Source: an uncultured Chloroflexota bacterium (GTDB lineage Bacteria; Chloroflexota; Limnocylindria; Limnocylindrales; Limnocylindraceae). Taken from it: DNA of 31,801 bases. Under the pieces are notes generated by a model. That model was not told where the DNA came from. It saw only the letters and a program-made list of their open reading frames with translations, and searched no databases. The stretch spans positions 1 to 31,801 of the forward strand of contig CAINNT010000082.1 of the NCBI GenBank assembly GCA_903851225.1, given 5' to 3'. Of this stretch, positions 1-15,798 are shown one piece after another; the stretch's first letter is position 1, and each line of letters opens with the position of its first letter. A program made the translations under genes and the position numbers.

Positions 1-407
1 AGGAAGAGGTCGAGTGCCAGGAAGACGCCGAGCATTCCCGTCTCGAGAATGAGGAAGCTGACGAAATACTCCTTCACGCGCGTCTGGATCGGCCCGAAGC
101 TCGCGAGGATGCAGATCCAGCTGAGCAGCGTCGTCAAGACAACGAGCGCTCCGGAGAGCCCGTCGACGCCGAGGTGGTAGGTGATGCCGAACGACGGAAT
201 CCACGAGAGCTGCTCGCTGAAGGCGAACTCGCCGCTCTGGCCGCGGATGCCCAGCAGCATGCCGAGGCTCAGCGCAAAGGTGACCAGTGAAACACCAAGT
301 GCGGCAGCGCGAATCAGGCCTGGTCGCGACGATGGAAGAAACGCGACGCCGAGCGCGCCGAGGAGTGGTAGGAAGATGATCAGCGAGAGGATCGGCATAT
401 CACTCAT
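1..407 (-). CDS. nuoM: NADH-quinone oxidoreductase subunit M, N-terminal part (runs off the window edge)
   Basis: Not in the ORF track; translated by hand from ATG 407 (ATGA overlap with the nuoL stop): MSDMPILSLIIFLPLLGALG...YHLGVDGLSGALVVLTTLL...KEYFVSFLILETGMLGVFLALDLF, a typical NuoM N-terminus; follows nuoL. Confidence 0.93.
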   Translation of the reverse strand, partial: MSDMPILSLIIFLPLLGALGVAFLPSSRPGLIRAAALGVSLVTFALSLGMLLGIRGQSGEFAFSEQLSWIPSFGITYHLGVDGLSGALVVLTTLLSWICILASFGPIQTRVKEYFVSFLILETGMLGVFLALDLF

Positions 408-2353
408 CCTGCGATCACCAGGTACGCCGCTGCGATGGCAACGAGGCCGAAGGCAATGCCAAGCGCATAGTTCTGCACGCGACCGGTTTGAATCTGTCGC
501 AGGCCACGACCGCCGCTTGAAGTGAGTGAGGCGACACCGTTCACCGTGCCGTCGACTACGCGACGGTCAAACCACCAGAGTGCGTTTGCAAACTTCCGCC
601 CGAAGCGTACGAAGACGAGGTCGTTGAGGTCGTCGAAGTACCAGCGGTTGCGACTCCCGTCGTAGAGCGGCTGCAGCCGCTTCGTCACGCGGCCGAGGAA
701 CTCGCCGTTGTCGCTGCGGAAGAGTCGCACGCCAACAACGGTGCCGATGGAGGCAACGGTGACGCTTGCGAGCATGAGTAGGCCATCGATGCCGAAGAGT
801 GTCCACGCCTCGTGTTCGTGGCCGAGCATCTCGCTCGCTGGGTGGAAGATCGGCTCAAGTGCATGCACCAGAACACCGTCGGCAAATGGGAAGCCGAGCG
901 CAGCGCCGATGGCAATTGATGGCACTGCAAGAATGATGAGCGGCAGCGTCATCGTCCACGGTGATTCGTGCACGTGCGATTCATCGTGCACGCGGCTCTT
1001 CCCCCAGAAGGTGAGTCCCATCAGTCGGAACATGTAGAAGGCGGTCATTGCGGCGACGATCATGCCAACGAACCAGACCCATGCGTACCCAAACTTGAAA
1101 GCCTCGCCGAGGATCTCATCTTTGGAGAAGAATCCGGCGAGCGGTGGCAGTCCAGCGATTGCCACGGTGCCGATCAGCATCGTTGCGTACGTGATTGGAA
1201 TCTTGCGCCAGAGTCCGCCCATCTTCGTCATCTCTTGCTCTCCGTTCACTGCGTGAATGACCGAGCCTGAGCCGAGGAAGAGGAGGCCCTTGAAGAAGCC
1301 GTGTGTGATGAGGTGGAAGATTGCGGGGATCCATGCGCCGACACCGAGGGCCGCAAACATGTAGCCGAGCTGTGAGAGAGTTGAGAAGGCGAGAACACGC
1401 TTGATGTCGGTCTGCGTGAAGGCAATCGATGCAGCGAAGATCGCCGTGAAGATGCCGATCGCCGCAACGATGAGCATTGCATCGTGGCTCGCGGCGAAGA
1501 GTGGGCTCATGCGCGCGACAAGATAGACACCCGCGTTCACCATGGTGGCGGCGTGGATCAGTGCGCTCACCGGGGTTGGGCCTTCCATGGCGTCTGGAAG
1601 CCAGACATGGAGTGGGAACTGCGCCGACTTGCCGACGGCGCCACAGAAGATGAGAAGGGCGATGACGGTGGCGGCGGGACCAACGAGGGCGCCGGCCTCG
1701 ATGCCAGCCAGCACCGTATGGATATCGAGCGAACCGAAGACCACCACGAGGCCCATCAGGCCGAGGGCGAAGCCGACGTCACCGACGCGGTTGGTAATAA
1801 AGGCCTTCTTGGCGGCCAAGCCCGGTGCCGTCTTGGTGTACCAGAACCCAATCAGCAGGTAGGAGGAGAGGCCGACCAGCTCCCAGGCGGCGAAGACCAC
1901 GAGGAGGTTGTCGGCGAGCACCAGCAGGAGCATCGAGAACATGAACAGGTTCAGGTAGGCAAAGAAGCGCCAGTAGCTGTCGTCATGGCTCATGTAGCCG
2001 ACGCTATAGAGGTGCACCAGGGCGCCGACCGTGGTCACCACCAGCAGTAGGGCTCCCGTGAGGGCGTCAACGTGCAGCCCGAGCCCGAAGTTCAGGTCGC
2101 CCGAGGCGATCCAGGTGAAGAGGGGCATCGACGCGCCAGCCTCACCGAGGCCCCCCGTAAGGGCGGGGATCGCGAGGCTCATGGCCAGCGCCCAGGTGGC
2201 GATGATTGCCCCAAGTGGGACCAGGTGGGCCAGCTTGCCGAGGCGGCGGCCGACTGCCGCAGTAAAGGCGAAGCCCATCAGTGGGAGGAGCAGCAAGAGC
2301 GGGGTGTAGCTCGGAAGTGCGCCCACCTCGACCACGGTCTCAGCAGTGAACAT
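404..2353 (-). CDS. nuoL: NADH-quinone oxidoreductase subunit L
   Basis: 649 aa; motifs WELVGLSSYLLIGFW, NRVGD, GKSAQFPLHVWLPDAMEGPTPVSALIHAATMV, STLSQLGYM, HGFFKGLLFL, Q(T)GRVQNY. Confidence 0.97.
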   Translation of the reverse strand: MFTAETVVEVGALPSYTPLLLLLPLMGFAFTAAVGRRLGKLAHLVPLGAIIATWALAMSLAIPALTGGLGEAGASMPLFTWIASGDLNFGLGLHVDALTGALLLVVTTVGALVHLYSVGYMSHDDSYWRFFAYLNLFMFSMLLLVLADNLLVVFAAWELVGLSSYLLIGFWYTKTAPGLAAKKAFITNRVGDVGFALGLMGLVVVFGSLDIHTVLAGIEAGALVGPAATVIALLIFCGAVGKSAQFPLHVWLPDAMEGPTPVSALIHAATMVNAGVYLVARMSPLFAASHDAMLIVAAIGIFTAIFAASIAFTQTDIKRVLAFSTLSQLGYMFAALGVGAWIPAIFHLITHGFFKGLLFLGSGSVIHAVNGEQEMTKMGGLWRKIPITYATMLIGTVAIAGLPPLAGFFSKDEILGEAFKFGYAWVWFVGMIVAAMTAFYMFRLMGLTFWGKSRVHDESHVHESPWTMTLPLIILAVPSIAIGAALGFPFADGVLVHALEPIFHPASEMLGHEHEAWTLFGIDGLLMLASVTVASIGTVVGVRLFRSDNGEFLGRVTKRLQPLYDGSRNRWYFDDLNDLVFVRFGRKFANALWWFDRRVVDGTVNGVASLTSSGGRGLRQIQTGRVQNYALGIAFGLVAIAAAYLVIAG

Positions 2354-2356
2354 CGC

Positions 2357-2677
2357 CTACTGCCTCATCGTGTCGTACTCGTCGACCAGCGGGGTCTTCC
2401 GGTTGCGGAAGATGGCGATCACGATCGCCAAGCCCACGGTGGCCTCTGCCGCCGCCACGGCGATGATCAGAAGCGCAAAGGCTGCACCCTGTCCCGCAAG
2501 TGACGGAATGAAAGCGCCCAGCGCGAGCGCGGCAAGGTTCACGGCGTTCAACATCAGCTCGATGCTCATCAACATGCTGATCGCGTTGCGACGCGCCAGG
2601 AAGCCGAATGAGCCGATGGCGAACAGCATTCCCGACAACACAAGGTATGGCTCAAGGTGTCCGGCGATTTGACTCAT
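2357..2677 (-). CDS. nuoK: NADH-quinone oxidoreductase subunit K
   Basis: 106 aa, 3 TM; RRNAISMLMSIELMLNAVNL and VAAAEATVGLAIVI. Confidence 0.96.
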   Translation of the reverse strand: MSQIAGHLEPYLVLSGMLFAIGSFGFLARRNAISMLMSIELMLNAVNLAALALGAFIPSLAGQGAAFALLIIAVAAAEATVGLAIVIAIFRNRKTPLVDEYDTMRQ

Positions 2678-3234
2678 GGGAGATCCTCGCCAACGTCGTT
2701 GGCCTTTGGCTCCATGGCGAGATAGATGCCGCCAATCACCGCGGCAAGGATGAGCACGCTTGCGATTTCAAATGCGAGCAGGTACGGCCCGAACAGTGCG
2801 GCGGCAACCGGCGCAGTTCCGGTTGCAGCTGGCGTGTCGGAGAAGACGGTTGAGCCCCACTCCGTGCTCCCGAAGGCAAGCCCGAAGACCACCGCAAGCA
2901 ATACTGCGGCAAGGGCCGCTGGAGCAACCTGTGTTTGGAAGGCCAACTTTACCGGTGCGACCTTCGACTGCGTGAGCATGATGGCGAACAGAATCAACAC
3001 ACTGATTGCGCCGATGTAGACGAGCACTTGCGCGCCGGCAACGATTGCGGCACCCAACATCACGTAGATACCGGCGAGTGCGCCAAGGGTGAGGATCAAG
3101 AAGAGACCGCTCTTGATGATGTCGCGGCCAAATACCACGCCGAAGGCGGCGGCGAGCACCACCCCGCCAAGGAGCAAGAAGAGGACGTCTGACCAACCGA
3201 GTCCAATGAACGGGATGACGTCTGGGAGCGGCAT
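2674..3234 (-). CDS. nuoJ: NADH-quinone oxidoreductase subunit J
   Basis: 186 aa hydrophobic; AQVLVYIGAISVLILFAIML and YLLAFEIASVLILAAVIGGI; directly before nuoK. Confidence 0.95.
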   Translation of the reverse strand: MPLPDVIPFIGLGWSDVLFLLLGGVVLAAAFGVVFGRDIIKSGLFLILTLGALAGIYVMLGAAIVAGAQVLVYIGAISVLILFAIMLTQSKVAPVKLAFQTQVAPAALAAVLLAVVFGLAFGSTEWGSTVFSDTPAATGTAPVAAALFGPYLLAFEIASVLILAAVIGGIYLAMEPKANDVGEDLP

Positions 3235-3237
3235 CAG

Positions 3238-5784
3238 TTACTTGCGCAGGCTCTGCGGCAGCACAGGGAGCTGTCGAGCTGGGTCGTAGCGCCGCCCAGC
3301 AACCGTGTTCTCCCAGTTGGCTTCTCCGCGAACGAATGTTGCCTCTGACGTGCGCTCGAGCTTCGACAGCGCGATAAGGTCGATCATTGGCTCACTGCGA
3401 TCGGTGTGTGCGAGCTCAAAGTCGAAGCCGCTGCGCAGCGCGTCATACGGGCACGCATCCACGCAGATGCCGCAGAGGATGCAGCGCGACTCGTCGACTT
3501 CGTACTTAGTGAGGATTCGTGGCTTCGGCATCAGCGCGCCGGTCGGGCAGGTCTCAGCGCAGCGACCACACGAGACACATGGCGATTCGTTCAAGCTCAT
3601 GTCGAGCGGGGTGGTTACGAGCGTATCGAATCCGGTGCGCATGAAGTCGTAGCAGGCGGCCCCAACAACTTCGGCACAAACGTTGGCGCAACGGCCGCAG
3701 TCAATGCACCGTGATGGCTCGCGCAGAATGAATGCGTGCGAGTCGTCGCGCAGGTAATCGTGGTTTGCACCGGTCCAGCGGTTTTCGGTGATTGAGCGGA
3801 ACCCGGCGCCGCCGTGATGATCCTTCTCGAGGGTCTTCAGCGTTGTGCCGTATTCGATGCCGAGGCGTCGCAGGTCGCAGAAGCCGATCGCTTCGCAGGT
3901 GCACTGCAAGCAGCGCGTGCTCTCGGCCATCACCTCTGGCTTGCTGTACGGAATTTCGTACTGGATGTAGTCGTTCTTGCGCTCTTCGGCCGGGAGTGCC
4001 TTCAGGCGCAACCGTGGCTCTTTCACCTCGGCGGTGAACGGCACGATGCTGAGGAACTCTGGCTGTGGCTCGGCGAGTGTCTGTCGGTTGCGAATCTCCG
4101 AAAGGTCGAGCCCCTGGAGGTACGCATCGACGGCGTAGGCGCAGCGTCGGCCGTCGGCGATCGAGGCGACGACGGTTGTTGCGCCGTTGCGCAAGTCGCC
4201 GCAGCCGAAGACGCCATCACGGCCGGTCTGGAAGGTGACGGCGTCTGCCTTGAGTCGGCCGTTCTTCGTGGTGGCAACGCCGTCGGCGCCGACGCTCGCC
4301 CAGGTCATGTCGGGACCCTGGCCGATCGCCTTCAGGATGCGATCGCACTCGATGATGAATTCTGTGCCTGGTGCTGGCTCTGGTCGTCGGCGACCCGATG
4401 CGTCGGGTGCGCCGAGCTGCATACGGATGAACTCGAGGCCGATCACCTTGTTGTTCGCGTCGGTGACGACGCGGGTTGGACCGGCCTGGAAGATGGCGCG
4501 CGCGCCCTCCTCGATCATCTCGTGGACTTCGTCGGCGGCTGGCATGTCCTTCATGTCGCGGCGGTAGACGAGGGTGACCTCCTTGGCTCCCTGGCGCACG
4601 CTGGTTCGGGCGCAGTCCATCGAGGTATACCCGCCGCCAACTACGACGACGCGGCTCCCCTCGTGATCTGGATAGGTGAGGCCGAGCGCGGCGGTGTGCA
4701 GGTAGTCACGTCCGTCGATGACCCCGTCAGCGTCTTCGCCTGGAATGCCGAGGTCGTTCGTGTCATAGCAGCCGATCGCAACAACGACTCCGTCGTAGCC
4801 CTGTGCTTTCAGGTCGGCAACGGTGAAATCACGACCGAGCATCTTGCCGCACTCGAACCGGCCGCCGAGTCGCGTGATCGACTGGTACTCGCCATCGAGC
4901 ACCTCGATCTTCGGCAGACGGTACTGCGGAATGCCGTAGCGCAACATGCCGCCCGGCTCTGGGTCTTTCTCGAAGATGGTGACGTCGTGTCCGGCGACGA
5001 GTAGGTAGTAGGCGGCAGATGCGCCAGACGGACCAGACCCAATCACCGCAACGCGCTTGCCCGTCTTTGGCTGGAGCTCGAATGGCACAGGTGGATCGAG
5101 ATTCTCGTCCCACATCGCCTTCAACACCTGGTCGCCGGCGTAGCGATGGCTATCGCGAATTGCGATCGCCTCGTCGACCTCGTCGCGACGGCAGTGGTCC
5201 TCACATGGTGCTGGGCAGACGCGACCGAGGATGCTCGGGAATGGAATGGTGCGCTTGAAGATGCGTGCAGACTCGCGGAACTGCGACTCAGCGTTCGCCT
5301 TCAAGAACCCAGGAATGTCGATATGGCTCGGGCACTTGTTCTGGCATGGCGGCAAGCAGTAGGCGTTGTGGTCGCTGAAGATCAACTCAAGGTTGGTGCG
5401 GCGAATTTCGCGAATGCGATCGGTCTGCGTCGATACGACCTGCGCAGGCTCAGCTTTCGCGGAACAACTGATGGATGGCTGATCGCACCCTTCGACATCC
5501 ACGACGCACATGCGGCATGCGCCGAATCCTGGAAGCTTCGGGTCGTAGCACAGGGTCGGAACTTCGATGCCGTTGGCGCGGCACACTTCAAGAATCGTCT
5601 GGCCCTCGAACGCTTCAAGCTTCTGCCCATCGATCTCGACGTAGAAGGTTGGTGTGCGCTGTGGTCGCTGTGGGCTGCGTGTGGTGAGCAGCTTGTCGAC
5701 GACGACTTCTGCAGATGGCGCTGGGGTGATCGCGCGAGAAACTGGTGTCACTGCGCTTGCCGGTCGATCAATCAGGTCGGCCAT
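3238..5784 (-). CDS. Chimeric Fe-S flavoprotein: NuoG/HoxU-type N-terminal Fe-S domains + nested GltD/SudA-type FAD/NADPH oxidoreductase + C-terminal half of NuoI
   Basis: 848 aa. 2Fe-2S ligands C79/C90/C93/C107; H139-x3-C143; GltD region aa ~144-629 (RVCPAPCEDHC, GSGPSG, GGMLRYGIPQYRLP, GGGYTSMD, VYRR, AIGQ, GD); C630-x5-C636; two CxxCxxCxxxC motifs (693-703, 736-746); third motif 768-778 in a NuoI-like tail (YEVDESRCILCGICVDACPYDAL..FDFELA). Confidence 0.9.
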   Translation of the reverse strand: MADLIDRPASAVTPVSRAITPAPSAEVVVDKLLTTRSPQRPQRTPTFYVEIDGQKLEAFEGQTILEVCRANGIEVPTLCYDPKLPGFGACRMCVVDVEGCDQPSISCSAKAEPAQVVSTQTDRIREIRRTNLELIFSDHNAYCLPPCQNKCPSHIDIPGFLKANAESQFRESARIFKRTIPFPSILGRVCPAPCEDHCRRDEVDEAIAIRDSHRYAGDQVLKAMWDENLDPPVPFELQPKTGKRVAVIGSGPSGASAAYYLLVAGHDVTIFEKDPEPGGMLRYGIPQYRLPKIEVLDGEYQSITRLGGRFECGKMLGRDFTVADLKAQGYDGVVVAIGCYDTNDLGIPGEDADGVIDGRDYLHTAALGLTYPDHEGSRVVVVGGGYTSMDCARTSVRQGAKEVTLVYRRDMKDMPAADEVHEMIEEGARAIFQAGPTRVVTDANNKVIGLEFIRMQLGAPDASGRRRPEPAPGTEFIIECDRILKAIGQGPDMTWASVGADGVATTKNGRLKADAVTFQTGRDGVFGCGDLRNGATTVVASIADGRRCAYAVDAYLQGLDLSEIRNRQTLAEPQPEFLSIVPFTAEVKEPRLRLKALPAEERKNDYIQYEIPYSKPEVMAESTRCLQCTCEAIGFCDLRRLGIEYGTTLKTLEKDHHGGAGFRSITENRWTGANHDYLRDDSHAFILREPSRCIDCGRCANVCAEVVGAACYDFMRTGFDTLVTTPLDMSLNESPCVSCGRCAETCPTGALMPKPRILTKYEVDESRCILCGICVDACPYDALRSGFDFELAHTDRSEPMIDLIALSKLERTSEATFVRGEANWENTVAGRRYDPARQLPVLPQSLRK

Positions 5785-5786
5785 GA

Positions 5787-7046
5787 TCAGCTCCGTCCGC
5801 TCGTTGATGTTGCCGACAGTGCGGCAACGGCAGGTCCAAACTCAGAGGCAAAGTATCGCACCCCCGTAAGGAGCGGGCTTGGCGCGAGCGCCTCGTGTGC
5901 GCAGAGGGCACTGTCGGCGACATCGGCAGCGAGTTTCTGCAGCCGCTCTGCATCGGCAGGGCCGGCGAGCCCATCGACAAAGCGCTGGCCGATCTCGGCG
6001 AGTCGACGAGTGCCGATGCGGCACGGGATCGTCTTGCCGCACGCCTCGTCGGCGCACCAGCGCGTCAACATGGTGGCGAGTTCGGGGATGGCGACGGAGC
6101 TGTCGAGTGCAAGGAGCGCGCCCGAGCCGATATGCGCGCCAACGCTCTTGAGGCCGGCGCCGCTGTATGGCGTGCCGCCGAAGAGGCTTGCTGGAATGAA
6201 TCCTCCAGTTGGTCCACCCACGAGCAACGCTTTGATTGACGCGCCACCTGCGGTGCCGCCTGCCGCTGCAATGATCTCGTTCAGTGGTGTGCCAGTTGGC
6301 ACTTCAAGCACACCTGGGTGTGCGACGGATCCGCTGATCTGCACGAGGACGGTTCCTGGCTGTGCGGTGTCGCCGATCTGCGCGAAGGCCTCCGCGCCGT
6401 TGTTCAGAATCCATGGCACCGCGGCGAGGGTGGCGACGTTGTTCACGGCGGTTGGCTTGCCGAGGTAACCGACTGTTGATGGGTATGGCGGGGTCTGCTC
6501 TGGCTGACCCCGCTTGCCGGCGAGCGCCTTCATCAGCACCGTCTCTTCGCCAATCATGCTGGAGCCCTGGAGTGGGCGGACGGTGATGATCAGCTCGCGA
6601 CCGGTGCCGAGCAGCGTTGTGCCAAGGATTCCCTCGCGCTCGGCGGTGGCGATTACCGCCTCGAGTCGTTTGATCGCTTCGGTGTACTCGGCGCGCACGG
6701 CGATGAACGCCTCGCGGGCGCCTACGGTGAGGGCGGCGATGGCGAGCCCCTCAACGATCGCCTGTGGGTTCTCCTCCATGAGGAGTCGGTTGGTGAATAC
6801 GGCGGGATCAGATTCATAGCCGTTCGCTACGGCGTAGTACTGGCTGGCTGGCTCGGCGGCCGTCGCCTGCCACTTCGTTCCCGTTAGGAAGCCGCCGCCG
6901 CCGCGCCCACGTAGGCCAGCGGCGATCAGGGTTGCGGTGGTGCCAGCCGGGCCTGCCGCAGCGGCGGCACGGAGCGCTGCCCACGGCTCAGCAGGGGCGG
7001 CAAACAGCAGCTGGCTCCAGCCCTTCGGTGCGTTCAGGCGCTTCAT
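5787..7046 (-). CDS. nuoF: Divergent NuoF/HoxF/HydB-family flavoprotein subunit
   Basis: 419 aa; GLRGRGGGGFLTGTKW, NGYESDP, VRAEY, GEET, GKRGQP, VNNVATL, GGPTGG, CGKTIPC...LCA. The fold is clear but several conserved residues are altered. Confidence 0.9.
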   Translation of the reverse strand: MKRLNAPKGWSQLLFAAPAEPWAALRAAAAAGPAGTTATLIAAGLRGRGGGGFLTGTKWQATAAEPASQYYAVANGYESDPAVFTNRLLMEENPQAIVEGLAIAALTVGAREAFIAVRAEYTEAIKRLEAVIATAEREGILGTTLLGTGRELIITVRPLQGSSMIGEETVLMKALAGKRGQPEQTPPYPSTVGYLGKPTAVNNVATLAAVPWILNNGAEAFAQIGDTAQPGTVLVQISGSVAHPGVLEVPTGTPLNEIIAAAGGTAGGASIKALLVGGPTGGFIPASLFGGTPYSGAGLKSVGAHIGSGALLALDSSVAIPELATMLTRWCADEACGKTIPCRIGTRRLAEIGQRFVDGLAGPADAERLQKLAADVADSALCAHEALAPSPLLTGVRYFASEFGPAVAALSATSTSGRS

Positions 7047-7864
7047 GCGGCGTACCTGCCGGCGAGAGCGGCGGCCCAGCTCGCAGCGTTCTTCGCGCTG
7101 AGGTCACGCTGCGGCTCTCCATCAATGACCACAAGCGGTGACGGTGCGCCAGCAACGTGGCTCGGAAGCGACTCAAGACGCAAGTTGCTCCACGGGATCG
7201 CCCGGCCGAACTCGGTGCCGAACTCGTAGCTCAGGGTACCCATCACTGCACCCGCTCCGGAGACGAGGCAGTTGGCGCAACGGCAGACGGCGATCGAGCG
7301 GGTCACCCCGGGCTCGAATGCGAGGTGCTTATAGAAGGTGGCGGTGCCATAGACCATGGCGTACCAGGCGCCGGTCGCGCGGCTGACACGCTTGAGCGCA
7401 TCGACTGGGAGGTAACCGTATGCGCCTTGGATCGCCTCGAGGATCGCAAGCATGTGGTGAGGGTCGTAGTCGTGCGCTTCGAGAATCTCGTCGACTTTGG
7501 CGATGTCGATGGTTGCCCCTGTCGCCGCCGCCGCGTCGGAAACCGTTCGACCGGAGCGACGGATCGCCGACTCTTCGCGTCGTTCGGCGTACTGCTCGGC
7601 GGGCCCCCAATGCACGGCGAAGCGACCCTTCGTGTCGGTGCCACCCATGTCGATGCACTCAATCGGACAGGCCTGCGCGCACTGGAAACAGGTCTCGCAC
7701 TTCAGCGTGCCGTGTTCGTCGGTGACCAGCTCAAGTCGGCCGCGATTGCGCGGCGCAATGTCGGGCTTCGCCTCTGGATACATCACCGTGCGCTTCGGCT
7801 GGAAGAAACGCGTGAGCGTGAGGCGCATTCCCGAGAGCAGTCCGGAGCCTGGAATACGTGGCAT
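7043..7864 (-). CDS. Fusion of NuoI N-terminal half (one 4Fe-4S motif) and a NuoE/HoxE-like domain
   Basis: Start reassigned to ATG 7864 (GGAGG SD, 2 nt after the nuoH stop) instead of 8140; 273 aa. aa 1-73: GMRLTLTRFFQPKRTVMYPE..PRNRGRLEL..KCETCFQCAQACPIECI (NuoI-like). aa 120-273: LAILEAIQGAYGYLP..VYGTATFY..IAVCRCANC (NuoE-like). Confidence 0.88.
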   Translation of the reverse strand: MPRIPGSGLLSGMRLTLTRFFQPKRTVMYPEAKPDIAPRNRGRLELVTDEHGTLKCETCFQCAQACPIECIDMGGTDTKGRFAVHWGPAEQYAERREESAIRRSGRTVSDAAAATGATIDIAKVDEILEAHDYDPHHMLAILEAIQGAYGYLPVDALKRVSRATGAWYAMVYGTATFYKHLAFEPGVTRSIAVCRCANCLVSGAGAVMGTLSYEFGTEFGRAIPWSNLRLESLPSHVAGAPSPLVVIDGEPQRDLSAKNAASWAAALAGRYAA

Positions 7865-7866
7865 GA

Positions 7867-9207
7867 CTACCTCCCCGCAATCAGCACGGCGAACGCCGTC
7901 GCGAAAATATTGAGCAGCGATGCTGGCAGGAGCCACTTCCAGGCGAAGCCCATCAGCTGGTCGATGCGTGCGCGTGGCAGCGTGCCGCGCATCCACACAA
8001 AGGTGAAGACGAGCGCGAACGTCTTGATGAGGAACCAGATGAGGCTCGCAACGGGTGGCAGCATCACAAAGGCCCAGATGCCAACAGCTGCGGTTGAGAC
8101 GCCGCCGAAGATGAGGAACCCAGCGACAAGTGCCTGCCACCCTTTGACACGACTGCTCGCAAACCAGATTGGGGCCGCAAAGAGCAACGTGCCAACAATT
8201 GGCGCTATGCCTGCGATGAGCGGCAACCCAATCCCAAGCGCGCTCAGGTCAATCAGGATTTGCGGATTGACATCAATGTGAATCGGCGGGTTTGATCCGC
8301 CGAGGAAGACGGCGCTGAAGAGTGCCGAGACGATGAAGACGTTCACGTACTCTGCAAAGAAGAAGAAGCCAAAGCGCATCCCTGAATACTCCGTCGCAAA
8401 GCCAGCGACGATCTCTTGGTCAGCTTCGGCATTGTCGAACGGGGTGCGGTTTGCTTCGGCGGTGATAGCGATGAAGAAGATGATCGCAGCGAGTGGCTGG
8501 CGGAAGATGAACCAGTCGAGGAACGAGCCGTCTTGTGCGGCGACGATCTTCGGCAGCGAGAGTGTGCCGGTGAGGATCACGATTCCCACAACGGAAAGTG
8601 TCAGTGGGATCTCGTAGCTGATCGCCTGTGCTGCGGCGCGAATGCCACCGAGGAGCGAGTACTTGTTGAACGATGACCAGCCGGCCATCATCAGGCCAAC
8701 GACGCTGAGCCCGCCGATTGCGAAGAAGTAGAGGAGGCCAAGCTCAAAGCCCATGCTCGTGAGCTCTGGTGCAAACGGAATGACGAGCAGCGTCATGAAG
8801 CTTGCGAGATAGACAACCACTGGCGCAAGTGTGAAGACTGGAACGTCGACGCTCGGTGGCGTGTAGTCCTCCTTCATCAGCACCTTGAGGCCGTGCACCA
8901 CGCTCATCACCGCGCCCGCTGGGCCGATGCGATCAGGTCCGATGCGCAGGTTCATGAGCGCAATGATCTTCATCTCCATGTAGATCAAGAGGAACGCGAC
9001 GGGTACCGAGATAAGGAAGGTGACGACCGAAGCGACGAGGAAGCGCACGATCGGCAGATTTGCGCCGATGGTCGCGGCGATGGCGCCACCAAATGTTGCA
9101 AGCAGAACGGTTGTTAGTGCGCCGCCGATGGCAAGGACTGGAAGTAGCACGGCGAGGATGCGACCGGCTGGCGTGAGGCGGTTCCAGGCCATCGATGCGC
9201 CGCTCAC
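7867..9207 (-). CDS. nuoH: NADH-quinone oxidoreductase subunit H (long form)
   Basis: 446 aa; LRIGPDRIGP, GLKVLMKE, GWSSFNKYSLLGGIRAAAQAISYE, EANRTPFD, TEYSG, RGTLPR.RIDQLM; GTG start overlaps the nuoD stop. Confidence 0.96.
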   Translation of the reverse strand: MSGASMAWNRLTPAGRILAVLLPVLAIGGALTTVLLATFGGAIAATIGANLPIVRFLVASVVTFLISVPVAFLLIYMEMKIIALMNLRIGPDRIGPAGAVMSVVHGLKVLMKEDYTPPSVDVPVFTLAPVVVYLASFMTLLVIPFAPELTSMGFELGLLYFFAIGGLSVVGLMMAGWSSFNKYSLLGGIRAAAQAISYEIPLTLSVVGIVILTGTLSLPKIVAAQDGSFLDWFIFRQPLAAIIFFIAITAEANRTPFDNAEADQEIVAGFATEYSGMRFGFFFFAEYVNVFIVSALFSAVFLGGSNPPIHIDVNPQILIDLSALGIGLPLIAGIAPIVGTLLFAAPIWFASSRVKGWQALVAGFLIFGGVSTAAVGIWAFVMLPPVASLIWFLIKTFALVFTFVWMRGTLPRARIDQLMGFAWKWLLPASLLNIFATAFAVLIAGR

Positions 9208-10415
9208 TTGTCGACTCCGCCCATGACTGGGTCGAGGCTGGCCATCACCGCCATGGTGTCGGCGATGAGGTTCCCCTTGGTAAGTGGTCCAACAAGTTGC
9301 AGGTGCACGAATGACGGATCGTGGATGCGCATGCGGAACGGCTGGTCGGTGCCGTCGCTGATAGCGTAGGTGCCGTACACGCCGCGTGGCCCTTCGACGG
9401 CGCCGAATGCGCGACCTGGTCGCGGACGCAGCAGTCGCGGCAGTTTCGCCATCACTGGGCCGTCGGGCATCTCATGAAGGACCTGATCGATGATGCGGAT
9501 CGACTGCTTGATCTCGTCCATGCGCACCAGATAGCGGGCCAGCGAGTCACCCTCGTCGCGGGTCGGCACATCGAACTCCAGCTCCGGGTAAACCAGATAC
9601 GGGCGGTCGCGGCGCAGGTCGAACGGCACGCCGCTCGCGCGGAGGTTTGGACCGGTGACGCCCATCTTGAGCGCCGTCTTTGCATCGAGAACGCCGAGGC
9701 CGCGGGTGCGGCGCACGAAGATCTCGTTCTCGTTGATCAGCGCCAGGTTGGAGTCGATCTGCGCGGCGGCGCGGCTCATCCACGTGCCGAGGCGGCTCAT
9801 GAACTCGTGGTTCAAGTCGCCGTTCACCCCGCCGATTCGGTAGTAGTTGTAGAGGAGCTTCTGGCCGGTAAGAGCGGCAAGCATGTCGACGATCTCGTCG
9901 CGCTCGATGAACGCCCAGAGGATCGGGGTGATGCCGCCAAGGTCAAGGGCCATCCAGCCTTGGAACAGGGTGTGACTTGCGATGCGGTTGAGCTCCATCG
10001 TCAACACGCGGATGTATTGAGCGCGGCGCGGCACGTCGACATCCATCAGCTTTTCGAATGCTGCGACGGGTGCCGCCTCGCAGAAGAGCGAGCTCACATA
10101 TTCGAGCGGATCGGTGTAGCAGATCGCCTGGTGGTAATCGGCGTTCTCGCAGAGCTTCTCGACTCCACGATGCAGATAGCCGAGCACCGGATCAAGGTCG
10201 ACGACCTTCTCGCCGTTCACCTTGATGATCACGCGGAGTACGCCGTGGGTCGAAGGATGCTGTGGTCCCATGTTCACGAACATCTCGCCTTCGCGCAACG
10301 TGAGGAACTCTGCCTGGCGCTCCGTCTGTGGAGATGGTGCCGGCTCGTACCACGTTGAGTCGGCGGGGATTGCAACGCGTGGATCGTCGAGCGATGGACG
10401 CATCTGCTGTGTCAT
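9204..10415 (-). CDS. nuoD: NADH-quinone oxidoreductase subunit D
   Basis: 403 aa; NMGPQHPSTHGVLR, GYLHRGVEK, ELNRIASH, GPNLRASG, VEGPRG, DPVMGGVDK; no NiFe-ligating CxxC pairs. Confidence 0.97.
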   Translation of the reverse strand: MTQQMRPSLDDPRVAIPADSTWYEPAPSPQTERQAEFLTLREGEMFVNMGPQHPSTHGVLRVIIKVNGEKVVDLDPVLGYLHRGVEKLCENADYHQAICYTDPLEYVSSLFCEAAPVAAFEKLMDVDVPRRAQYIRVLTMELNRIASHTLFQGWMALDLGGITPILWAFIERDEIVDMLAALTGQKLLYNYYRIGGVNGDLNHEFMSRLGTWMSRAAAQIDSNLALINENEIFVRRTRGLGVLDAKTALKMGVTGPNLRASGVPFDLRRDRPYLVYPELEFDVPTRDEGDSLARYLVRMDEIKQSIRIIDQVLHEMPDGPVMAKLPRLLRPRPGRAFGAVEGPRGVYGTYAISDGTDQPFRMRIHDPSFVHLQLVGPLTKGNLIADTMAVMASLDPVMGGVDK

Positions 10416-10417
10416 CG

Positions 10418-10969
10418 CTATACCCCAGGGCTCTTGCGGAGCACGGTTGCTGCTGTCGCATCAGCCGGCGTTCCAACTCGCTCCATGTTGCGCACGCCAG
10501 CGGCGGGTGATCGAGATGCGTCGTCAGCGAGGTAGAAATCTTTGCGAAGCGGATGGCTTCGGTAATCATCGGGCATATAGATGCGTCGCAGATCACGATT
10601 CCCTTCGAAGATGATGCCAAACATGTCGTACGCTTCGCGCTCCATCCATTCGGCACCTGGCCACATGAATGTGGCCGATGCGATGCGCGGTGCACTGCGA
10701 TCCAGGCCCGAAACGATGACGCGAAGCCAGTCGCCGCTCTTCGACGAAGAGAGGTGGTACACGACCTGCATCTCTTCGCCGGTGTCGACGCCGCAGAGAT
10801 CGATCAGCATTTCAAATCGAAGGGCTGGATGATCGTGAAGGGTTCGCAAGGTATCGGTTGCATCCTTGAGCGCAATGCGAATCTCGCTCTCGTCATAACG
10901 CTGACGCACTGGCGCGAGCAGTCGCTCACCAAACGTCTCTTGTAGGAGTGCAGCGAGACGGCGATCCAC
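10418..10969 (-). CDS. nuoC: NADH-quinone oxidoreductase subunit C
   Basis: 183 aa; LIDLCGVD, VVYHL, AEWMEREAYDMFGIIFEG, HPLRKDF. Confidence 0.95.
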   Translation of the reverse strand: MDRRLAALLQETFGERLLAPVRQRYDESEIRIALKDATDTLRTLHDHPALRFEMLIDLCGVDTGEEMQVVYHLSSSKSGDWLRVIVSGLDRSAPRIASATFMWPGAEWMEREAYDMFGIIFEGNRDLRRIYMPDDYRSHPLRKDFYLADDASRSPAAGVRNMERVGTPADATAATVLRKSPGV

Positions 10970-11677
10970 TTAGATCCCCTTCGGAACGGTTGGACCGATC
11001 GCGCGCTCTGGCCAGTGGCCGCGGCGATCTTTGACCAGCTGCTGCAACTTCATCATTCCGTAGATCAGTCCCTCTGGTCGTGGTGGGCAGCCAGGGATGT
11101 ACACATCGACTGGCATGACACGATCGATTCCTTGCACCACGGAGTAGCTGCGCTTGTAGCGTCCACCAGAGCAGGTGCAGTCGCCCATAGCGACAACCCA
11201 CTTTGGCTCGGGCATCTGCTCCCACAAACGAATCAGCGGTTCGGCCATCTTTGTTGTGAGGGTTCCGGCAACGATCAACACATCTGCCTGACGTGGGCTT
11301 GCGCGGAAGGGGAACATGCCCCATCGATCAATGTCGTTCTTTGGTGTTGCAGTGGACATCATCTCGATCGCGCAGCAGGCCAGGCCAGAGAGCAGCGGCC
11401 ACAGGCTATTTGCCCGAATCAAATCGAGCACGACATCGGCCTTTGTTGGGATTGCAGAGAGCGCGCCGCTCCAACGCGCATCATCAACACGGCCGTCACC
11501 GGTTGCGTCGTATCGCGCAAGCTCTAGGTTTGGGTGTGCCTCGAGTGGCAGCCCACCGTAGGCACGCGGGTCATCGGTGCTCCACAGGGTGTTGCCCACG
11601 ATCGTTGGTGACTGGACGCTGCCGTCTGGCTGCACCTCAGGCAGGTTGCTGAACTTTGGGTCGCGCGTTATCGCCAT
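10970..11677 (-). CDS. nuoB: NADH-quinone oxidoreductase subunit B with N-terminal extension
   Basis: 235 aa; [49 protein letters not shown] (N2 ligands present). Confidence 0.96.
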
Positions 11678-12024
11678 GCCAAGACCCCCTTGCGCCAGGC
11701 GTAGGCGAGGCCAACGAGCAACACGCCGATGAAGATCGCCATGGAGATCAGGCCGTCCATCAAGAGGACCTTGAAGTTCAGTGCCCAGATATAGATGAAG
11801 ACAATCTCAACGTCAAAGGCGACAAAGAGGAGTGCGTACAGGTAGAAGGAGAGCCCGAATCGTCCGTGGGTGTCTCCATAGGTGTTGATGCCCGACTCGT
11901 ACGGGACCTGCTTGCCCCGACTGCCGCGGGTGCGGTGGGAGATCAGCCATGCGATGCCGATGGTGAGGAAGACGAAGGAGATACCTGCTCCTGCGAAGCC
12001 GAGGACGTACCAGAGTCCTGTCAT
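11668..12024 (-). CDS. nuoA: NADH-quinone oxidoreductase subunit A
   Basis: 118 aa; [32 protein letters not shown]; SD GGGGAG upstream. Confidence 0.96.
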
Positions 12025-12093: not shown

Positions 12094-12099
12094 ATTCTA
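12094..12099 (-). promoter_or_regulatory. Candidate -10 element (TAGAAT) for the nuo operon
   Basis: TAGAAT on the minus strand overlapping the methyltransferase stop codon, about 70 nt upstream of nuoA; no convincing -35 seen. Confidence 0.3.
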
Positions 12100-13278
12100 G
12101 ACGAGGGGGCGATTCGGAGCCGCCGCTCCGGGGAGTGACGATACGGAGTCGGCGAGTGCATTTGCCCCTGGGGAGCGACCTGCGACAAACAACTCAACCG
12201 CAAATCCGCCCATGCGCCGCGGGTCCATCAGTTGGGCGAGCGCCGAGCGCAGGGCGATTGCCCCTTCAAGAGTTGCTTCGGCGCCAGCCCGCGATCGGGC
12301 GACTTCGCTGTCGACCCCCGCGCTGGCGAGGAATCTCGCCTGGGTGGTGCTCGCCACATGACGAAGACCACCCGTTTGCGCGGCCTTCCGCAGCAGGGTG
12401 AGGTCCACATGTGCGGTCAGGTCGCGACTCCCAGGCTCGCTGAGCAGGTCGGCGGTAGCCCGATGCCCCTGATAGGCAAGGGCTGTGCCGGCCATTCGGC
12501 TGGATGGGTCCCGTAGGTCAACCCCCTCCCGACCGTAATCCAGCACGAGGACGACCCCCTCGGTGAGCTCGGCCCCCAGCGTGGCGGCCCATTCCGCGGT
12601 CGCAGGGGAGATCTCGGCAAGTTGCCCTTCCGCGAGCGGCGGCCAGTCCGCCATGAGGGGGGTGAGTCGGTCGACGATCCCGGGATCGGGTGGGCCTTCA
12701 ACCCAAGTAAGAGCATTTGTTACAGGATCTACGGTGACGCGGCGCTCCGCGAAGCCACCCGGGGCAGCGGACCGACCGACCACGATATGGAAGGGGAGAG
12801 CGTCGGCGAACTCGTTGGCGACCACGATCCCTGCTGCTGGAGGGCTCCCCGCTGCGACGAGGGGTGGTCCGCCGGCTGGGAACCGTTTCAGCGCAGCCGA
12901 CAGCTCGGCGAGACGGTGGGGGTTTGCCTCGGTCACAGCGACCTCGAGCGCGCTTCGTAAAGGGTGGTCGGATCTGATGAGGTAGTCGAGTGCCGCCAGT
13001 AGGAGAGTCCCCTCGCCCGCACCGAATTCGCGCCAGCGGAAGGGTGCGGGGCGACCGAGCCGCTCCCACGTTGCGGCAGCGAGCCGCGCGATCGCAGCGC
13101 CAAGGATGGGGTGCAGTTCTGGCGCGGTCATGAAGTCACCACTACGGCCCGCCCGACGCTGGGTTGTGGCGTAGTAGCCGAGCCCGGGCTCGAGAGTGGC
13201 GCGCTCCATAAACCGCGCGAAGCTCACCGAGCCCTGGCGTTGGATCTCTTCGCGAATCCGGCGCTCCACCTCTTCCAT
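12097..13278 (-). CDS. SAM-dependent methyltransferase, MidA/NDUFAF7 (DUF185) family
   Basis: Start reassigned to ATG 13278 (393 aa); SFARFME..GYY, GDFMTAPE, EFGAGEG (SAM motif I), ANEFADALP, DYG, DLTAHVD. Confidence 0.88.
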   Translation of the reverse strand: MEEVERRIREEIQRQGSVSFARFMERATLEPGLGYYATTQRRAGRSGDFMTAPELHPILGAAIARLAAATWERLGRPAPFRWREFGAGEGTLLLAALDYLIRSDHPLRSALEVAVTEANPHRLAELSAALKRFPAGGPPLVAAGSPPAAGIVVANEFADALPFHIVVGRSAAPGGFAERRVTVDPVTNALTWVEGPPDPGIVDRLTPLMADWPPLAEGQLAEISPATAEWAATLGAELTEGVVLVLDYGREGVDLRDPSSRMAGTALAYQGHRATADLLSEPGSRDLTAHVDLTLLRKAAQTGGLRHVASTTQARFLASAGVDSEVARSRAGAEATLEGAIALRSALAQLMDPRRMGGFAVELFVAGRSPGANALADSVSSLPGAAAPNRPLV

Positions 13279-13285
13279 GCAGTAG

Positions 13286-13305
13286 ATCCTACGCGGCGCT
13301 ACCGT
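13286..13305. promoter_or_regulatory. Back-to-back -10 hexamers for probable leaderless methyltransferase and folK transcripts
   Basis: TAGGAT (13291-13286, minus) 7 nt before ATG 13278; TACCGT (13300-13305, plus) 7 nt before ATG 13313; neither gene has an SD. Confidence 0.5.
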
Positions 13306-13312
13306 CGGGCAC

Positions 13313-13903
13313 ATGCGTGAACTCGTTGTGCACCTCGGGATTGGGGCCAATCTCGACGATCCTGTCGCCACACTCGCCGAGGCGGTCGTCGCCCTGGCCC
13401 GCATTCCAGGGTGGAACCTTGAACAGGTCTCGCCGCTGTATCGCACGACACCGGTCGGTCTCGTCGACCAACCAGAGTTCTGCAACGCAGCGCTGCGAAT
13501 GCGCGCCGCACTTCCAGATAAGCCAGCTGCAGCAGCGATCGAGGTGCTCATTCGCGTGAAAGAACTAGAGCGACTCTTTGGTCGCGTGCCAACGGTGCGA
13601 TTTGGCCCGCGCCGACTTGACATTGACATCATTGCGATGGGGGATATCGCCGTCGTACATCCGCGACCGCTCGGCACAGAACCCGACGGGATCGATGCAG
13701 ATCGACCGCTCGTCGTTCCGCATCCATCTGCAACCGAGCGACTCTTTGTGTTGGCACCTCTTGCCGACATCTCTCCAACACTCAAGGCGCCGGGGTGGCC
13801 AGGGACTGCCCGTGAGCTACGCGATATACGGCGACGAATCGAGGGTGATGCGGCTGCGCGCTGCGTCGGCGCATGGGATTCGACGGCCCTGCGCTGGGTC
13901 TAA
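13313..13903 (+). CDS. folK: 2-amino-4-hydroxy-6-hydroxymethyldihydropteridine diphosphokinase
   Basis: HLGIGANL, SPLYRTTPVG..DQPEFCNA, RFGPRRLDIDII, PHP..ERLFVLAPLADI. Confidence 0.94.
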   Translation: MRELVVHLGIGANLDDPVATLAEAVVALARIPGWNLEQVSPLYRTTPVGLVDQPEFCNAALRMRAALPDKPAAAAIEVLIRVKELERLFGRVPTVRFGPRRLDIDIIAMGDIAVVHPRPLGTEPDGIDADRPLVVPHPSATERLFVLAPLADISPTLKAPGWPGTARELRDIRRRIEGDAAARCVGAWDSTALRWV

Positions 13904-13919: not shown

Positions 13920-15302
13920 TTACCGTCGGTAGTGCCGTCGCCCGGTAAAGACCATGGCAATTCCGTGGCGGTTGGCAATTTCGATTGCTGCGACGTCACG
14001 TCGTGAGCCACCTGGCTGAACTATCGCGGTGATTCCGGCCGCTGCTGCCGCTGCGATCCCTTCGGCGAATGGGAAGTACGCATCACTTGCCATGACCGCA
14101 CCGCGTGCGCGCTCACCCGCCTGATTCAACGCTATTTCAACTGCAACACGTCTGTTGACCTGTGCCGCGCCGATGCCGAGCGTTGCGGCATTGCGCGCAA
14201 CAACGATGGCGTTTGAGCGAATGTGACGAACGACTCTCCACGAGAAGAGTAAGTCCGTCAGTTCGTCAAGTGTTGGGCGTCGATCAGTGACGACACGAAG
14301 TTGTGATCGCTCGATGTTCCCGGTATCTGCTGTTTGCAGGAGAACTGCCCCGTTGACGCCGAACATGTCCAATCCGTTGCCCTGATGGGTGGGGTGAATC
14401 ACCACGCTTAGCTCCGGTCGCGCGCGCAACACCTCTGCAGCTCCGTCGTCGGCGAGTGCCGGGGCAAGCACCGACTCAAATGTTCCTGCCGCAATCACGG
14501 CAGCAACAGCGCGGTCGATCGGTACGTTCAACACGATGGTTGAACCAGAGCTTGCCGCTGCATCTGTCTCAATCGCACGAGTGAGGGCGCCGAGTGCCGT
14601 CTCTGCGGTTGCTACGCCGATTGGGTCCGTATGGCGAATGAGTGCAACGCTCGGCGTTGGCAGGTCGGCGACGAGGCGCGCGCCTGCGTCAAGGTCGAGG
14701 AGGTCGTTGAGGCTAGGCTCCTGCCCCTGCAGCACGCGAGCCGCCATGACGCCGCCCTCGGTGCTGTGTACCCGACGGTACGCCGCTGCGGCTTGGTGTT
14801 GATTCTCGCCGTGCCCAAACGTTCGTATCCTCTCGAGGACAATGACTTCGCGCGCTGGCATTTCGCTCTCGTTGTCGCGCACATGCGGTGCAACGTAGGC
14901 CGCGATCGCGAGCGCGGCCGAGCGGCGCAGTTCGTTTCGTACTGCGCCAAGGCCTCTCGGAGATGTCAGATCGCTTAGAACGTCGCCGATTGCAGCTGGA
15001 TCCACAACGATGAGTGGTCCGCTCTCCTCCGCAAGAAGCGCCCGGGTGACGGCGACGATTGCGATCGGTGGCGCACCTGCGCCTCCGGGGGCAATGAGGA
15101 GGTCGGAGCTGGTGAGACTTGCCGCCGCTCGATCCAGTTCTGCCGCATCAGCATGCTCGGTGACATGGATCGATTCCGCCCGCAGCTGTGAGGCGACTGG
15201 ACCCGCTTCTACCGTGGCACCGCGGGCGATCAGGGTGGCAAGGATGGGTGCCAGCCCTGCGAGGGTGGGGCTCTCGGGCGAGATCAGCAGTAGGACGCGC
15301 AT
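13920..15302 (-). CDS. Divergent PurH-like protein (AICAR transformylase fold; degenerate IMP cyclohydrolase domain)
   Basis: Start reassigned to ATG 15302 (460 aa); GENQHQ, RSNAIV, GIGAAQ, ASDAYFPF, QPGGSRRD, MVFTGRRHYRR match the PurH C-domain; N-domain motifs are unrecognisable. Confidence 0.82.
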   Translation of the reverse strand: MRVLLLISPESPTLAGLAPILATLIARGATVEAGPVASQLRAESIHVTEHADAAELDRAAASLTSSDLLIAPGGAGAPPIAIVAVTRALLAEESGPLIVVDPAAIGDVLSDLTSPRGLGAVRNELRRSAALAIAAYVAPHVRDNESEMPAREVIVLERIRTFGHGENQHQAAAAYRRVHSTEGGVMAARVLQGQEPSLNDLLDLDAGARLVADLPTPSVALIRHTDPIGVATAETALGALTRAIETDAAASSGSTIVLNVPIDRAVAAVIAAGTFESVLAPALADDGAAEVLRARPELSVVIHPTHQGNGLDMFGVNGAVLLQTADTGNIERSQLRVVTDRRPTLDELTDLLFSWRVVRHIRSNAIVVARNAATLGIGAAQVNRRVAVEIALNQAGERARGAVMASDAYFPFAEGIAAAAAAGITAIVQPGGSRRDVAAIEIANRHGIAMVFTGRRHYRR

Positions 15303-15384
15303 GCTGCTGATGGTGGCATACTCGCTCACACAAACCCGCACGCTGGTGTGCAGGGTGAACCGAAATCTAGCGAGTGAGGACAAG

Positions 15385-15798
15385 ATGTTTCGTTGGCCCT
15401 GGGAATACCTCTTCACCGTCTTGAATGCTGATCTTGGAACGTTTTACACGCCGTTCTGGATCGCCAATCTGGTGCTCTTCCTCGCAACCATCGTTGTCTA
15501 TGCCTACGCGACCCGCGGCAGCCGCGGGCGCGGGGTGATTGGCGACGAGTGGGAGTACATCCTCTGGATCAGCCTGGGCACCTTTGGCATGAACTTGGTC
15601 TACGCCGCGTTCCAGTGGTACGGCCTCTTCCCGATCGCCACCACGCTTGTTGGGCTGCTCGCCCTGCGCGACACCGTTACCAAGCGTTTCCCGCCACTCC
15701 TTGCAGCTGAGGCGGAACACGCTGCGCTGTTGCGCACTCGGCGCCAGGTGGCCGACGGCGTTGAAGCAACCATTCGACCAGCAAATCGCCGCGGGTAG
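15385..15798 (+). CDS. Small hypothetical membrane protein (3-4 TM)
   Basis: ATG 15385 with GAGGA SD; 137 aa, hydrophobic and aromatic-rich stretches, basic C-tail. Confidence 0.7.
   Translation: MFRWPWEYLFTVLNADLGTFYTPFWIANLVLFLATIVVYAYATRGSRGRGVIGDEWEYILWISLGTFGMNLVYAAFQWYGLFPIATTLVGLLALRDTVTKRFPPLLAAEAEHAALLRTRRQVADGVEATIRPANRRG

Follow-up and report, generated by a model that had tools for sequence, protein, structure and literature searches.

The stretch of DNA analysed here (31,801 nucleotides, referred to as the window; contig CAINNT010000082.1 of GenBank assembly GCA_903851225.1) comes from a freshwater Chloroflexota bacterium, a Candidatus Limnocylindrus of the class Limnocylindria, whose metagenome-assembled genome (MAG) comprises 208 contigs and is 71% complete. 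It carries the genes of respiratory complex I, all of which lie on the minus strand, tightly packed and with intact reading frames, as judged from the open reading frames (ORFs) and Pfam matches. The 11-subunit core is found in canonical order (NuoA, B, C, D, H, J, K, L and M), with M and N seen in relatives, and nuoD lies directly 5' of nuoH, with no nuoE-F-G between them, which is where these genes stand in the canonical 14-subunit arrangement. Among the ORFs of the window there is no standalone nuoI between nuoH and nuoJ, a claim of the initial annotation that the ORF map bears out to the base. The interval is occupied by three genes, the first and last of which are fusions that each carry one half of NuoI; the proteins are labelled P0001 (I'E), P0003 (F-like) and P0002 (G*I''). 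Lengths and residue positions are given in amino acids (aa).

11668-12024, minus strand: nuoA (Pfam match)
10970-11677, minus strand: nuoB (Pfam match; ligands of cluster N2, CC..C..CP, present in the sequence)
10418-10969, minus strand: nuoC (Pfam match)
9204-10415, minus strand: nuoD (Pfam match; GYLHRG present)
7867-9207, minus strand: nuoH, 446 aa (PF00146, E 1.2e-99)
7043-7864, minus strand: I'E fusion gene, 273 aa, encoding the NuoI N-half, a linker and a NuoE/NfnC-like thioredoxin-like domain
5787-7046, minus strand: NuoF-like gene of the BfuB-core type, 419 aa (Pfam and PDB profile matches)
3238-5784, minus strand: G*I'' fusion gene, 848 aa (Pfam, profile and PDB matches)
2674-3234, minus strand: nuoJ (PF00499), starting 3 nt past the G*I'' stop
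2357-2677, minus strand: nuoK (Pfam match)
404-2353, minus strand: nuoL (Pfam match)
start at 407, minus strand: nuoM (Pfam match), which leaves the window

The slot of nuoI is therefore kept, with I' directly after nuoH and I'' directly before nuoJ, and the coding sequences of the two halves are separated by ~3.5 kb.

7580-7864, minus strand: I', the NuoI N-half (P0001 aa 1-95), with an amphipathic helix, TVMYPE, PRNRGR and the first CxxCxxCxxxCP motif
3370-3519, minus strand: I'', the NuoI C-half (P0002 aa 756-805), KYEVDESR-CILCGICVDACP-YDAL..FDFELA
3241-3369, minus strand: variable tail of P0002 (aa 806-848), 3' of I''

The initial annotation had read 7043-7864 as a NuoI N-terminus with one cysteine motif that continues into a NuoE domain, and 3238-5784 as a gene ending in the NuoI C-half, and the profile searches agree on both counts. 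In the case of P0001, aa 10-80 match positions 14-85 of the 180 in PRK05888.1-1 (E 8.4e-16) and the protein matches positions 1-64 of the 121 in TIGR01971, with PF01257 found behind them; in the case of P0002, aa 756-802 match TIGR01971 positions 71-117 (E 2e-13). The sole CxxCxxCxxxCP motif of P0001 lies in I' (C56, C59, C62, C66 and P67; bases 7699-7664), whereas the second NuoI motif, together with its NuoI-specific flank, is located in a different polypeptide, P0002 (C768, C771, C774, C778 and P779; bases 3483-3448). When the PDB was searched with I', all 31 matches were to NuoI/TYKY, and with I'' the top single-stretch matches were to NuoI/TYKY C-halves, polyferredoxins outranking NuoI only through summed weak repeats. 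Placed on NuoI of M. smegmatis (8e9g_I), P0001 aa 9-93 align to residues 7-89 and P0002 aa 756-798 to residues 87-129, so that NuoI is cut cleanly, with no residues lost.

Taken separately, the halves score 45.9 and 50.0 bits against TIGR01971, and neither reaches the curated cut-off of 113 bits. Using a NuoI profile of our own, built from 40 canonical two-motif NuoI sequences, we obtained 97.3 bits for I' alone (positions 11-87) and 58.0 bits for I'' alone (positions 86-148). A search with the joined halves, as the initial annotation had suggested, gave a single contiguous domain match of 160.0 bits across positions 11-148, inside the range of canonical NuoI (152-229 bits), while a control in which I' was joined to the neighbouring ferredoxin motif of P0002 reached 122 bits (positions 11-119). 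The generic-ferredoxin origin that had been considered for the halves is thus seen neither in the PDB matches nor in this control, and these comparisons support the orphan motifs being the NuoI N-half and C-half specifically. Ranking the similarities of the two halves to the same 40 canonical sequences, as a comparison of common origin, yielded a rho of -0.17, which is not significant.

P0002 contains three ferredoxin-type motifs (C693-C703, C736-C746 and C768-C778), of which C693-C703 and C736-C746 form a HydA/NuoG-type ferredoxin domain that is also present in StnC/NfnA. Since these two motifs pair with one another, as they do in StnC/NfnA, one orphan motif is left in each protein. The earlier proposal of one unpaired motif per protein therefore holds, with the refinement that P0002 bears three motifs and the third alone is unpaired. 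The four cysteines and the proline are invariant in I' (92/92 I'E sequences) and in I'' (67/67 G*I'' sequences), and these eight cysteines and two prolines are kept down to 28-46% overall identity. Conservation scores are 0.85 for I' (aa 31-75), the highest stretch of P0001, and 0.87 for I'', which supports the view that the split of NuoI is ancient and under strong selection.

The arrangement is widespread within one class. The I'E fusion protein has 2778 full-length homologs and is encoded at at least 503 loci in species-representative genomes (Candidatus Limnocylindrus, Limnocylindrales, Limnocylindria), closed chromosomes included. In the genome under study, a search of the whole assembly with the NuoI model returned the two complementary pieces alone and no intact NuoI. 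A split NuoI was found in 40 of 41 relatives, with the model matched at positions 1-65 by one frame and at 71-117 by a second frame ~4.2 kb away; none of the 41, 22 of which are at least 90% complete, has a NuoI match above the family cut-off. An intact nuoI elsewhere, which the initial annotation had named as a possible objection, was looked for in the near-complete genomes of the genus and not found. Each genome of the genus has one NuoH, and in each of five genomes at least 90% complete there is one NuoF-family gene and no second NuoF. What has been observed directly is how the genes are arranged and conserved, which parts of NuoI the halves represent, and that no other NuoI or NuoF was found in the genus. 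Among 401 Chloroflexota genomes sampled, the I'E fusion is present in 44/44 genomes of three families (f1-f3) and in 0 of ~355 other Chloroflexota; the split is also present in a fourth family (f4), and hence in all four sampled families of Limnocylindria. When 1.84 billion representatives were searched with I', the I'E family came first, followed by ordinary two-motif NuoI, and cluster look-ups, like a search with the f4-type protein, named only Limnocylindria or Chloroflexota. Two further proteins, P0201 (an I' half with DUF4019) and P0241 (an I' half with a C-terminal fragment of a carbohydrate phosphorylase), are single-motif NuoI N-halves, which may be metagenome chimeras or further fissions of NuoI.

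A survey of synteny in relatives, another of the checks proposed at the outset, revealed the same position of the cassette in f1 and f2, where the order MT-A-B-C-D-H-I'E-F-G*I''-J-K-L-M-N is kept (MT, a methyltransferase gene described below). In f4 the genes are divided between two operons, B-D-I'E-F-G*I''-MT and A-C-H-J-K-L-M-N, in the second of which nuoH is followed directly by nuoJ. The claim that an 11-subunit operon captured the cassette within nuoI is favoured by the canonical order and by the cassette standing at the nuoI slot, but the two-operon layout of f4 leaves it unproven; insertion into the nuoI of an 11-subunit operon is thus the parsimonious history. In f3, G*I'' and nuoJ are kept apart by unrelated genes (L107:11963-13348, L108:12297-13543, L111:12516-17541 and L112:12491-13498), which differ from locus to locus: SRPBCC together with NmrA/SDR-like genes, PAS, metallo-beta-lactamase and zinc alcohol dehydrogenase (ADH). 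In this family, genes seem to have inserted repeatedly at the former 3' edge of nuoI. A hidden ferredoxin gene at this position in f3 was considered and rejected, the genes being unrelated (SDR/SRPBCC, PAS, metallo-beta-lactamase, ADH).

Turning to the genes between the two halves, the initial annotation described an inserted E-F-G cassette. A three-gene flavoprotein input cassette does lie inside nuoI, but its best PDB relatives place its ancestry with NfnABC/StnABC rather than NuoEFG: for all three proteins the best solved relatives are Nfn/Stn/Hyd-Bfu subunits (9n5u, 8oh5, 9bov), and the cassette is a trimmed module of this Bfu type. Its recognisable domains, apart from the NuoF-like protein, are as follows.

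7082-7516, minus strand: NuoE/HydC/NfnC-like domain (P0001 aa 117-261; PF01257 at aa 125-261, E 2e-19)
4114-5358, minus strand: GltD/NfnL-like flavin domain (P0002 aa 143-557; Fer4_20, Pyr_redox_2; PRK12814, E 1e-162)
3535-3729, minus strand: HydA/NuoG-type ferredoxin domain (P0002 aa 686-750; Fer4_Nqo3, Fer4_7; motifs C693-C703 and C736-C746)

The top PDB matches of the NuoE-like domain are HydC (7p5h_C), 9bov_C and NfnC (9n5u_C), and AlphaFold 2 (AF2) models it with a predicted local distance difference test (pLDDT) of 72-96. It keeps the first cysteine pair (C194 and C199, plus C196), whereas the second pair aligns to serine and glycine; in the I'E alignment C194, C196 and C199 are each present in 88/92 sequences and H236 in 83/92, and the [2Fe-2S] cluster may either have been lost or have acquired 3Cys+His ligation. 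Some f2 and f4 genomes encode a shortened domain (proteins of 220-239 aa) that Pfam misses. P0003 has NfnB, HydB and StnB as its top PDB matches, ahead of true NuoF, and its aa 22-403 align to residues 140-521 of the 602 in NfnB (9n5u_B), which is the core only: the N-terminal [2Fe-2S] and C-terminal ferredoxin domains of NfnB/StnB/HydB are missing, and Pfam finds no extra cluster domains. In its N3 motif the second cysteine is a threonine (T339, in 71/79 sequences), while C336, C342 and C382 are invariant and H384 is conserved. The flavin mononucleotide (FMN)/NADH-site residues are altered (NADE..PG to NGYESDPA) and variable within the class; in one species of the genus the NuoF-like protein scores only 70.7 bits against PF01512, compared with ~131-135 bits in the other four genus genomes.

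P0002 consists, in order, of a [2Fe-2S] domain, a GltD-type flavin adenine dinucleotide (FAD)/NADPH domain, the HydA/NuoG-type 2x[4Fe-4S] ferredoxin domain and the NuoI C-half. Its PDB matches, 9bov_A (E 6e-164), StnC (8oh5_C, E 1e-141) and NfnA (9n5u_A, E 1e-137), extend across aa 49-~780. The alignment to 9bov_A covers residues 6-700 of 1178, without the NuoG/Fdh molybdopterin-like C-terminal domain, and the NuoG model TIGR01973 scores 83.9 bits on P0002 against a cut-off of 470. I'' begins ~20 residues past the last ferredoxin-domain cysteine, where the molybdopterin-like domain of the parent enzymes starts. The cysteines of the ferredoxin domain are invariant in 67/67 sequences, as are the dinucleotide motifs of the GltD domain across the class (G249/G251/G254, G383-G385 and Y407-R408-R409; 36 sequences). 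Because these motifs are invariant and the FMN/NADH site of the NuoF-like protein is variable, NADPH via FAD at the GltD site is the best-supported candidate for electron input; input of NADH via the FMN of the NuoF-like protein would be possible but is uncertain. The bifurcation hallmarks of the Bfu family are the N-terminal [2Fe-2S] and the C-terminal ferredoxin domain of BfuB and the [2Fe-2S] cluster of BfuC (PMC10482914, PMC12018979), and all three are missing or altered in the cassette.

Comparison with known systems makes clear what is shared and what is not. As in NuoI/Nqo9/TYKY (NDUFS8), the subunit that carries clusters N6a and N6b, we find the N-terminal helix, both CxxCxxCxxxCP motifs, the C-terminal flank and the nuoH-nuoJ slot; here, however, they are divided between two polypeptides, each half being fused to a subunit of the flavoprotein module and neither reaching the family cut-off. 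With NfnABC/StnABC (9n5u, 8oh5, 9bov; PMC12018979, PMC10482914) the cassette shares the gene order NuoE-like, NuoF-like, NuoG-N/GltD and the [2Fe-2S]-GltD-ferredoxin architecture of the large subunit, but it differs in lacking the terminal cluster domains of BfuB, in having a BfuC-type cluster short of two cysteines and in carrying the NuoI C-half in place of the molybdopterin-like C-terminal domain of the large subunit. Moreover, NfnABC/StnABC are soluble, whereas the cassette here is predicted to be bound to the membrane complex. The canonical N-module NuoE-F-G (T. thermophilus Nqo1-3, E. coli) resembles it in general folds and in the role of a flavin and iron-sulfur (Fe-S) input arm; unlike that module, the genes here lie inside nuoI, the NuoG molybdopterin-like domain is absent and a GltD FAD/NADPH domain has been added. 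Attachment by fusion to the halves of NuoI argues for an acquisition independent of canonical NuoEFG.

We found no published description of a complex I with a split NuoI in the literature, and the nearest case is that of the Mbx-like operons, where a GltD-related flavoprotein takes the place of NuoI (Degli Esposti 2015, PMC4758237). These likewise have a GltD-type NAD(P)H flavoprotein at the NuoI position and illustrate the modular exchange of input modules, with FpoF grouped alongside them as another alternative input module; however, NuoI is replaced there, while here it persists in two pieces, each joined to a protein of a three-subunit module. The present system can be classed as a complex I whose input module was acquired independently and one of whose core subunits is split. 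Inter-subunit [4Fe-4S] clusters are found in FX of photosystem I and in the nitrogenase Fe protein, where cysteines from two chains hold the subunits together. Those are single clusters with (pseudo)symmetric 2+2 ligation, whereas here a whole two-cluster fold would be shared 3+1 and 1+3 between different proteins.

In the 2x[4Fe-4S] ferredoxin fold, each cluster is bound by three cysteines of one motif and by the Cys-Pro cysteine of the other, and a single CxxCxxCxxxCP motif cannot complete a cluster alone. Since the two orphan motifs are the N-half and the C-half of one family, the simplest reading is that NuoI is re-formed in trans. We put the probability at roughly three in four that this is the sole complex I of the organism and that its NuoI is made as two halves which re-form the fold in trans, wiring and clamping the flavoprotein module. 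The I' half would bring the membrane-proximal amphipathic helix and the first cysteine motif, and the I'' half, within the last ~95 residues of G*I'', the second motif and the NuoI-specific flank. Given the parity of the motifs and the 3+1 ligation of the fold, N6a and N6b would be assembled in trans, each with three cysteine ligands on one chain and one on the other, and both clusters would bridge I'E and G*I''. Through this joint fold, the transhydrogenase-derived module would be both wired to N2 in NuoB and fastened to the Q module. Electrons would then pass from NADPH to the FAD of the GltD domain, along the Fe-S chain of G*I'' to N6a/N6b (I'' plus I') and on to N2 and quinone, and a side branch from the FMN site of the NuoF-like protein, via N3 and [2Fe-2S], may admit NADH. 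In Nfn/Stn, the cluster chain fed by FAD has a Y-junction (PMC12018979, PMC10482914), and the branch that in these relatives runs toward the catalytic or molybdopterin-like domain would here lead into N6a/N6b, N2 and quinone. We infer the pairing in trans, the cofactor content, the substrate and the direction of electron flow in this scheme from such comparisons. On balance, we also favour the fuller picture of a natural two-chain ferredoxin with both clusters ligated 3+1, serving as wire and clamp for an independently acquired NADPH (perhaps NADH) module on an 11-subunit complex I, which would make the enzyme a pump that respires NADPH directly.

Several points weigh against this reading. The association of the halves and their binding of clusters are predictions from sequence, and no natural case is known to us in which a bacterial-type ferredoxin fold is divided between two chains. 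Neither half takes on structure in AF2: in the model of P0001 (50-sequence alignment) the I' region, aa 24-115, has a pLDDT below 50 and shows neither a fold of its own nor docking to the E-like domain, and in that of P0002 (36-sequence alignment; mean pLDDT 58) aa 604-848, I'' included, fall below 35. The statement that there is no other NuoI rests on relatives, because the genome itself is 71% complete, and some f2 genomes hold a second complex-I-like cluster (e.g. G026:C99:2898-7806) with a HycD-like subunit and an intact 2x[4Fe-4S] subunit of the formate-hydrogenlyase type. Finally, because the cluster ligands of the NuoE-like and NuoF-like parts are non-canonical and the nucleotide site is variable, part of the module may be structural only. 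The unstructured models and the additional NuoI-like subunits of f2 would suit a situation in which the halves are real but do not pair with each other, I' being only a membrane-side anchor, I'' being an extra cluster site, a partner for another copy of itself or vestigial, and N2 being reached by another route or through another ferredoxin-like subunit. We consider this improbable: the halves are complementary, abutting parts of one family, their eight cysteines and two prolines are invariant across the class, a lone motif of this kind cannot complete a cluster, and searches of the genus's small genomes gave no further NuoI-like gene. We also examined the extra NuoI-/NuoH-like genes of f2 as a second complex I and rejected this, as the ferredoxin subunit is of the formate-hydrogenlyase type and lies beside its own HycD-like genes.

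That an ordinary nuoI was merely interrupted by misjoined contigs, a binning error or a frameshift could be suspected because the MAG is fragmented (208 contigs) and 71% complete. The homologs and loci listed above, closed chromosomes among them, speak against it, as do the intact frames and the tight gene packing. In addition, all four junctions (H/I'E, I'E/F, F/G*I'' and G*I''/J) are bridged, with no joints or indels, by contigs from independent runs, two of DNA and two of metatranscriptomes, which rules out the misassembly that the initial annotation had listed as an objection; an artefact is so improbable that it is already refuted for practical purposes. A more substantial, if unlikely, alternative keeps the same structure and gives it another job, in which the enzyme runs mainly in reverse, or as a membrane-coupled transhydrogenase, and proton-motive force with quinol, or both nucleotide sites, make NADPH. 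Complex I is reversible, two flavin-nucleotide domains are kept on one Y-shaped cluster chain, and the parent enzymes are reversible NADH/NADPH/ferredoxin transhydrogenases (PMC10482914). Yet the marks of bifurcation, namely BfuB's N- and C-terminal cluster domains and a BfuC [2Fe-2S] with four Cys, are absent, and conservation of the NuoF-like nucleotide site is poor. Respiration is the simpler role to assume, because the small genomes belong to an aerobic-type heterotroph and encode no other complex I and no other NuoF-like protein.

The growth of complex I is commonly explained by the addition of modules, and the way in which a new input module is wired and fixed is known only from canonical NuoEFG. 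Here a second, independent acquisition appears to be preserved with its seams visible, an Nfn/Stn-type module inside the gene of a core subunit. If the halves pair, a redox module would be docked in a new manner, through a shared two-cluster fold, and the abundant lake and soil bacteria that carry it would possess a candidate NADPH-respiring proton pump. The system would also offer a natural test, and a living example, of half-ferredoxins assembling in trans, as is assumed for the origin of ferredoxins by gene duplication. The five-gene stretch B-D-I'E-F-G*I'' of the f4 operon encodes the whole peripheral arm and is a convenient target for expression.

Other subunits and neighbouring genes show some peculiarities. 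NuoH has 446 aa in f1/f2 as against 336-342 aa in f3, the difference consisting of ~45 extra N-terminal residues (a hydrophobic segment) and an ~80-aa insert (aa ~309-388) that holds two further hydrophobic segments. NuoB has an N-terminal extension of ~100 aa ahead of its Oxidored_q6 domain, which is shorter in f3. Directly upstream of nuoA lies one further gene:

12097-13785, minus strand: NDUFAF7/MidA-like methyltransferase ORF, start codon uncertain (PF02636, E 1e-38)

The methyltransferase adjoins the complex I genes in f1, f2 and f4, being placed 3' of G*I'' in f4, and this conserved neighbourhood hints that it acts in bacteria as a factor for complex I assembly or Arg methylation. It is adjoined in turn by a PurH-like ORF (window positions 13920-15416, minus strand) that contains the AICARFT_IMPCHas domain only, at aa 136-431.

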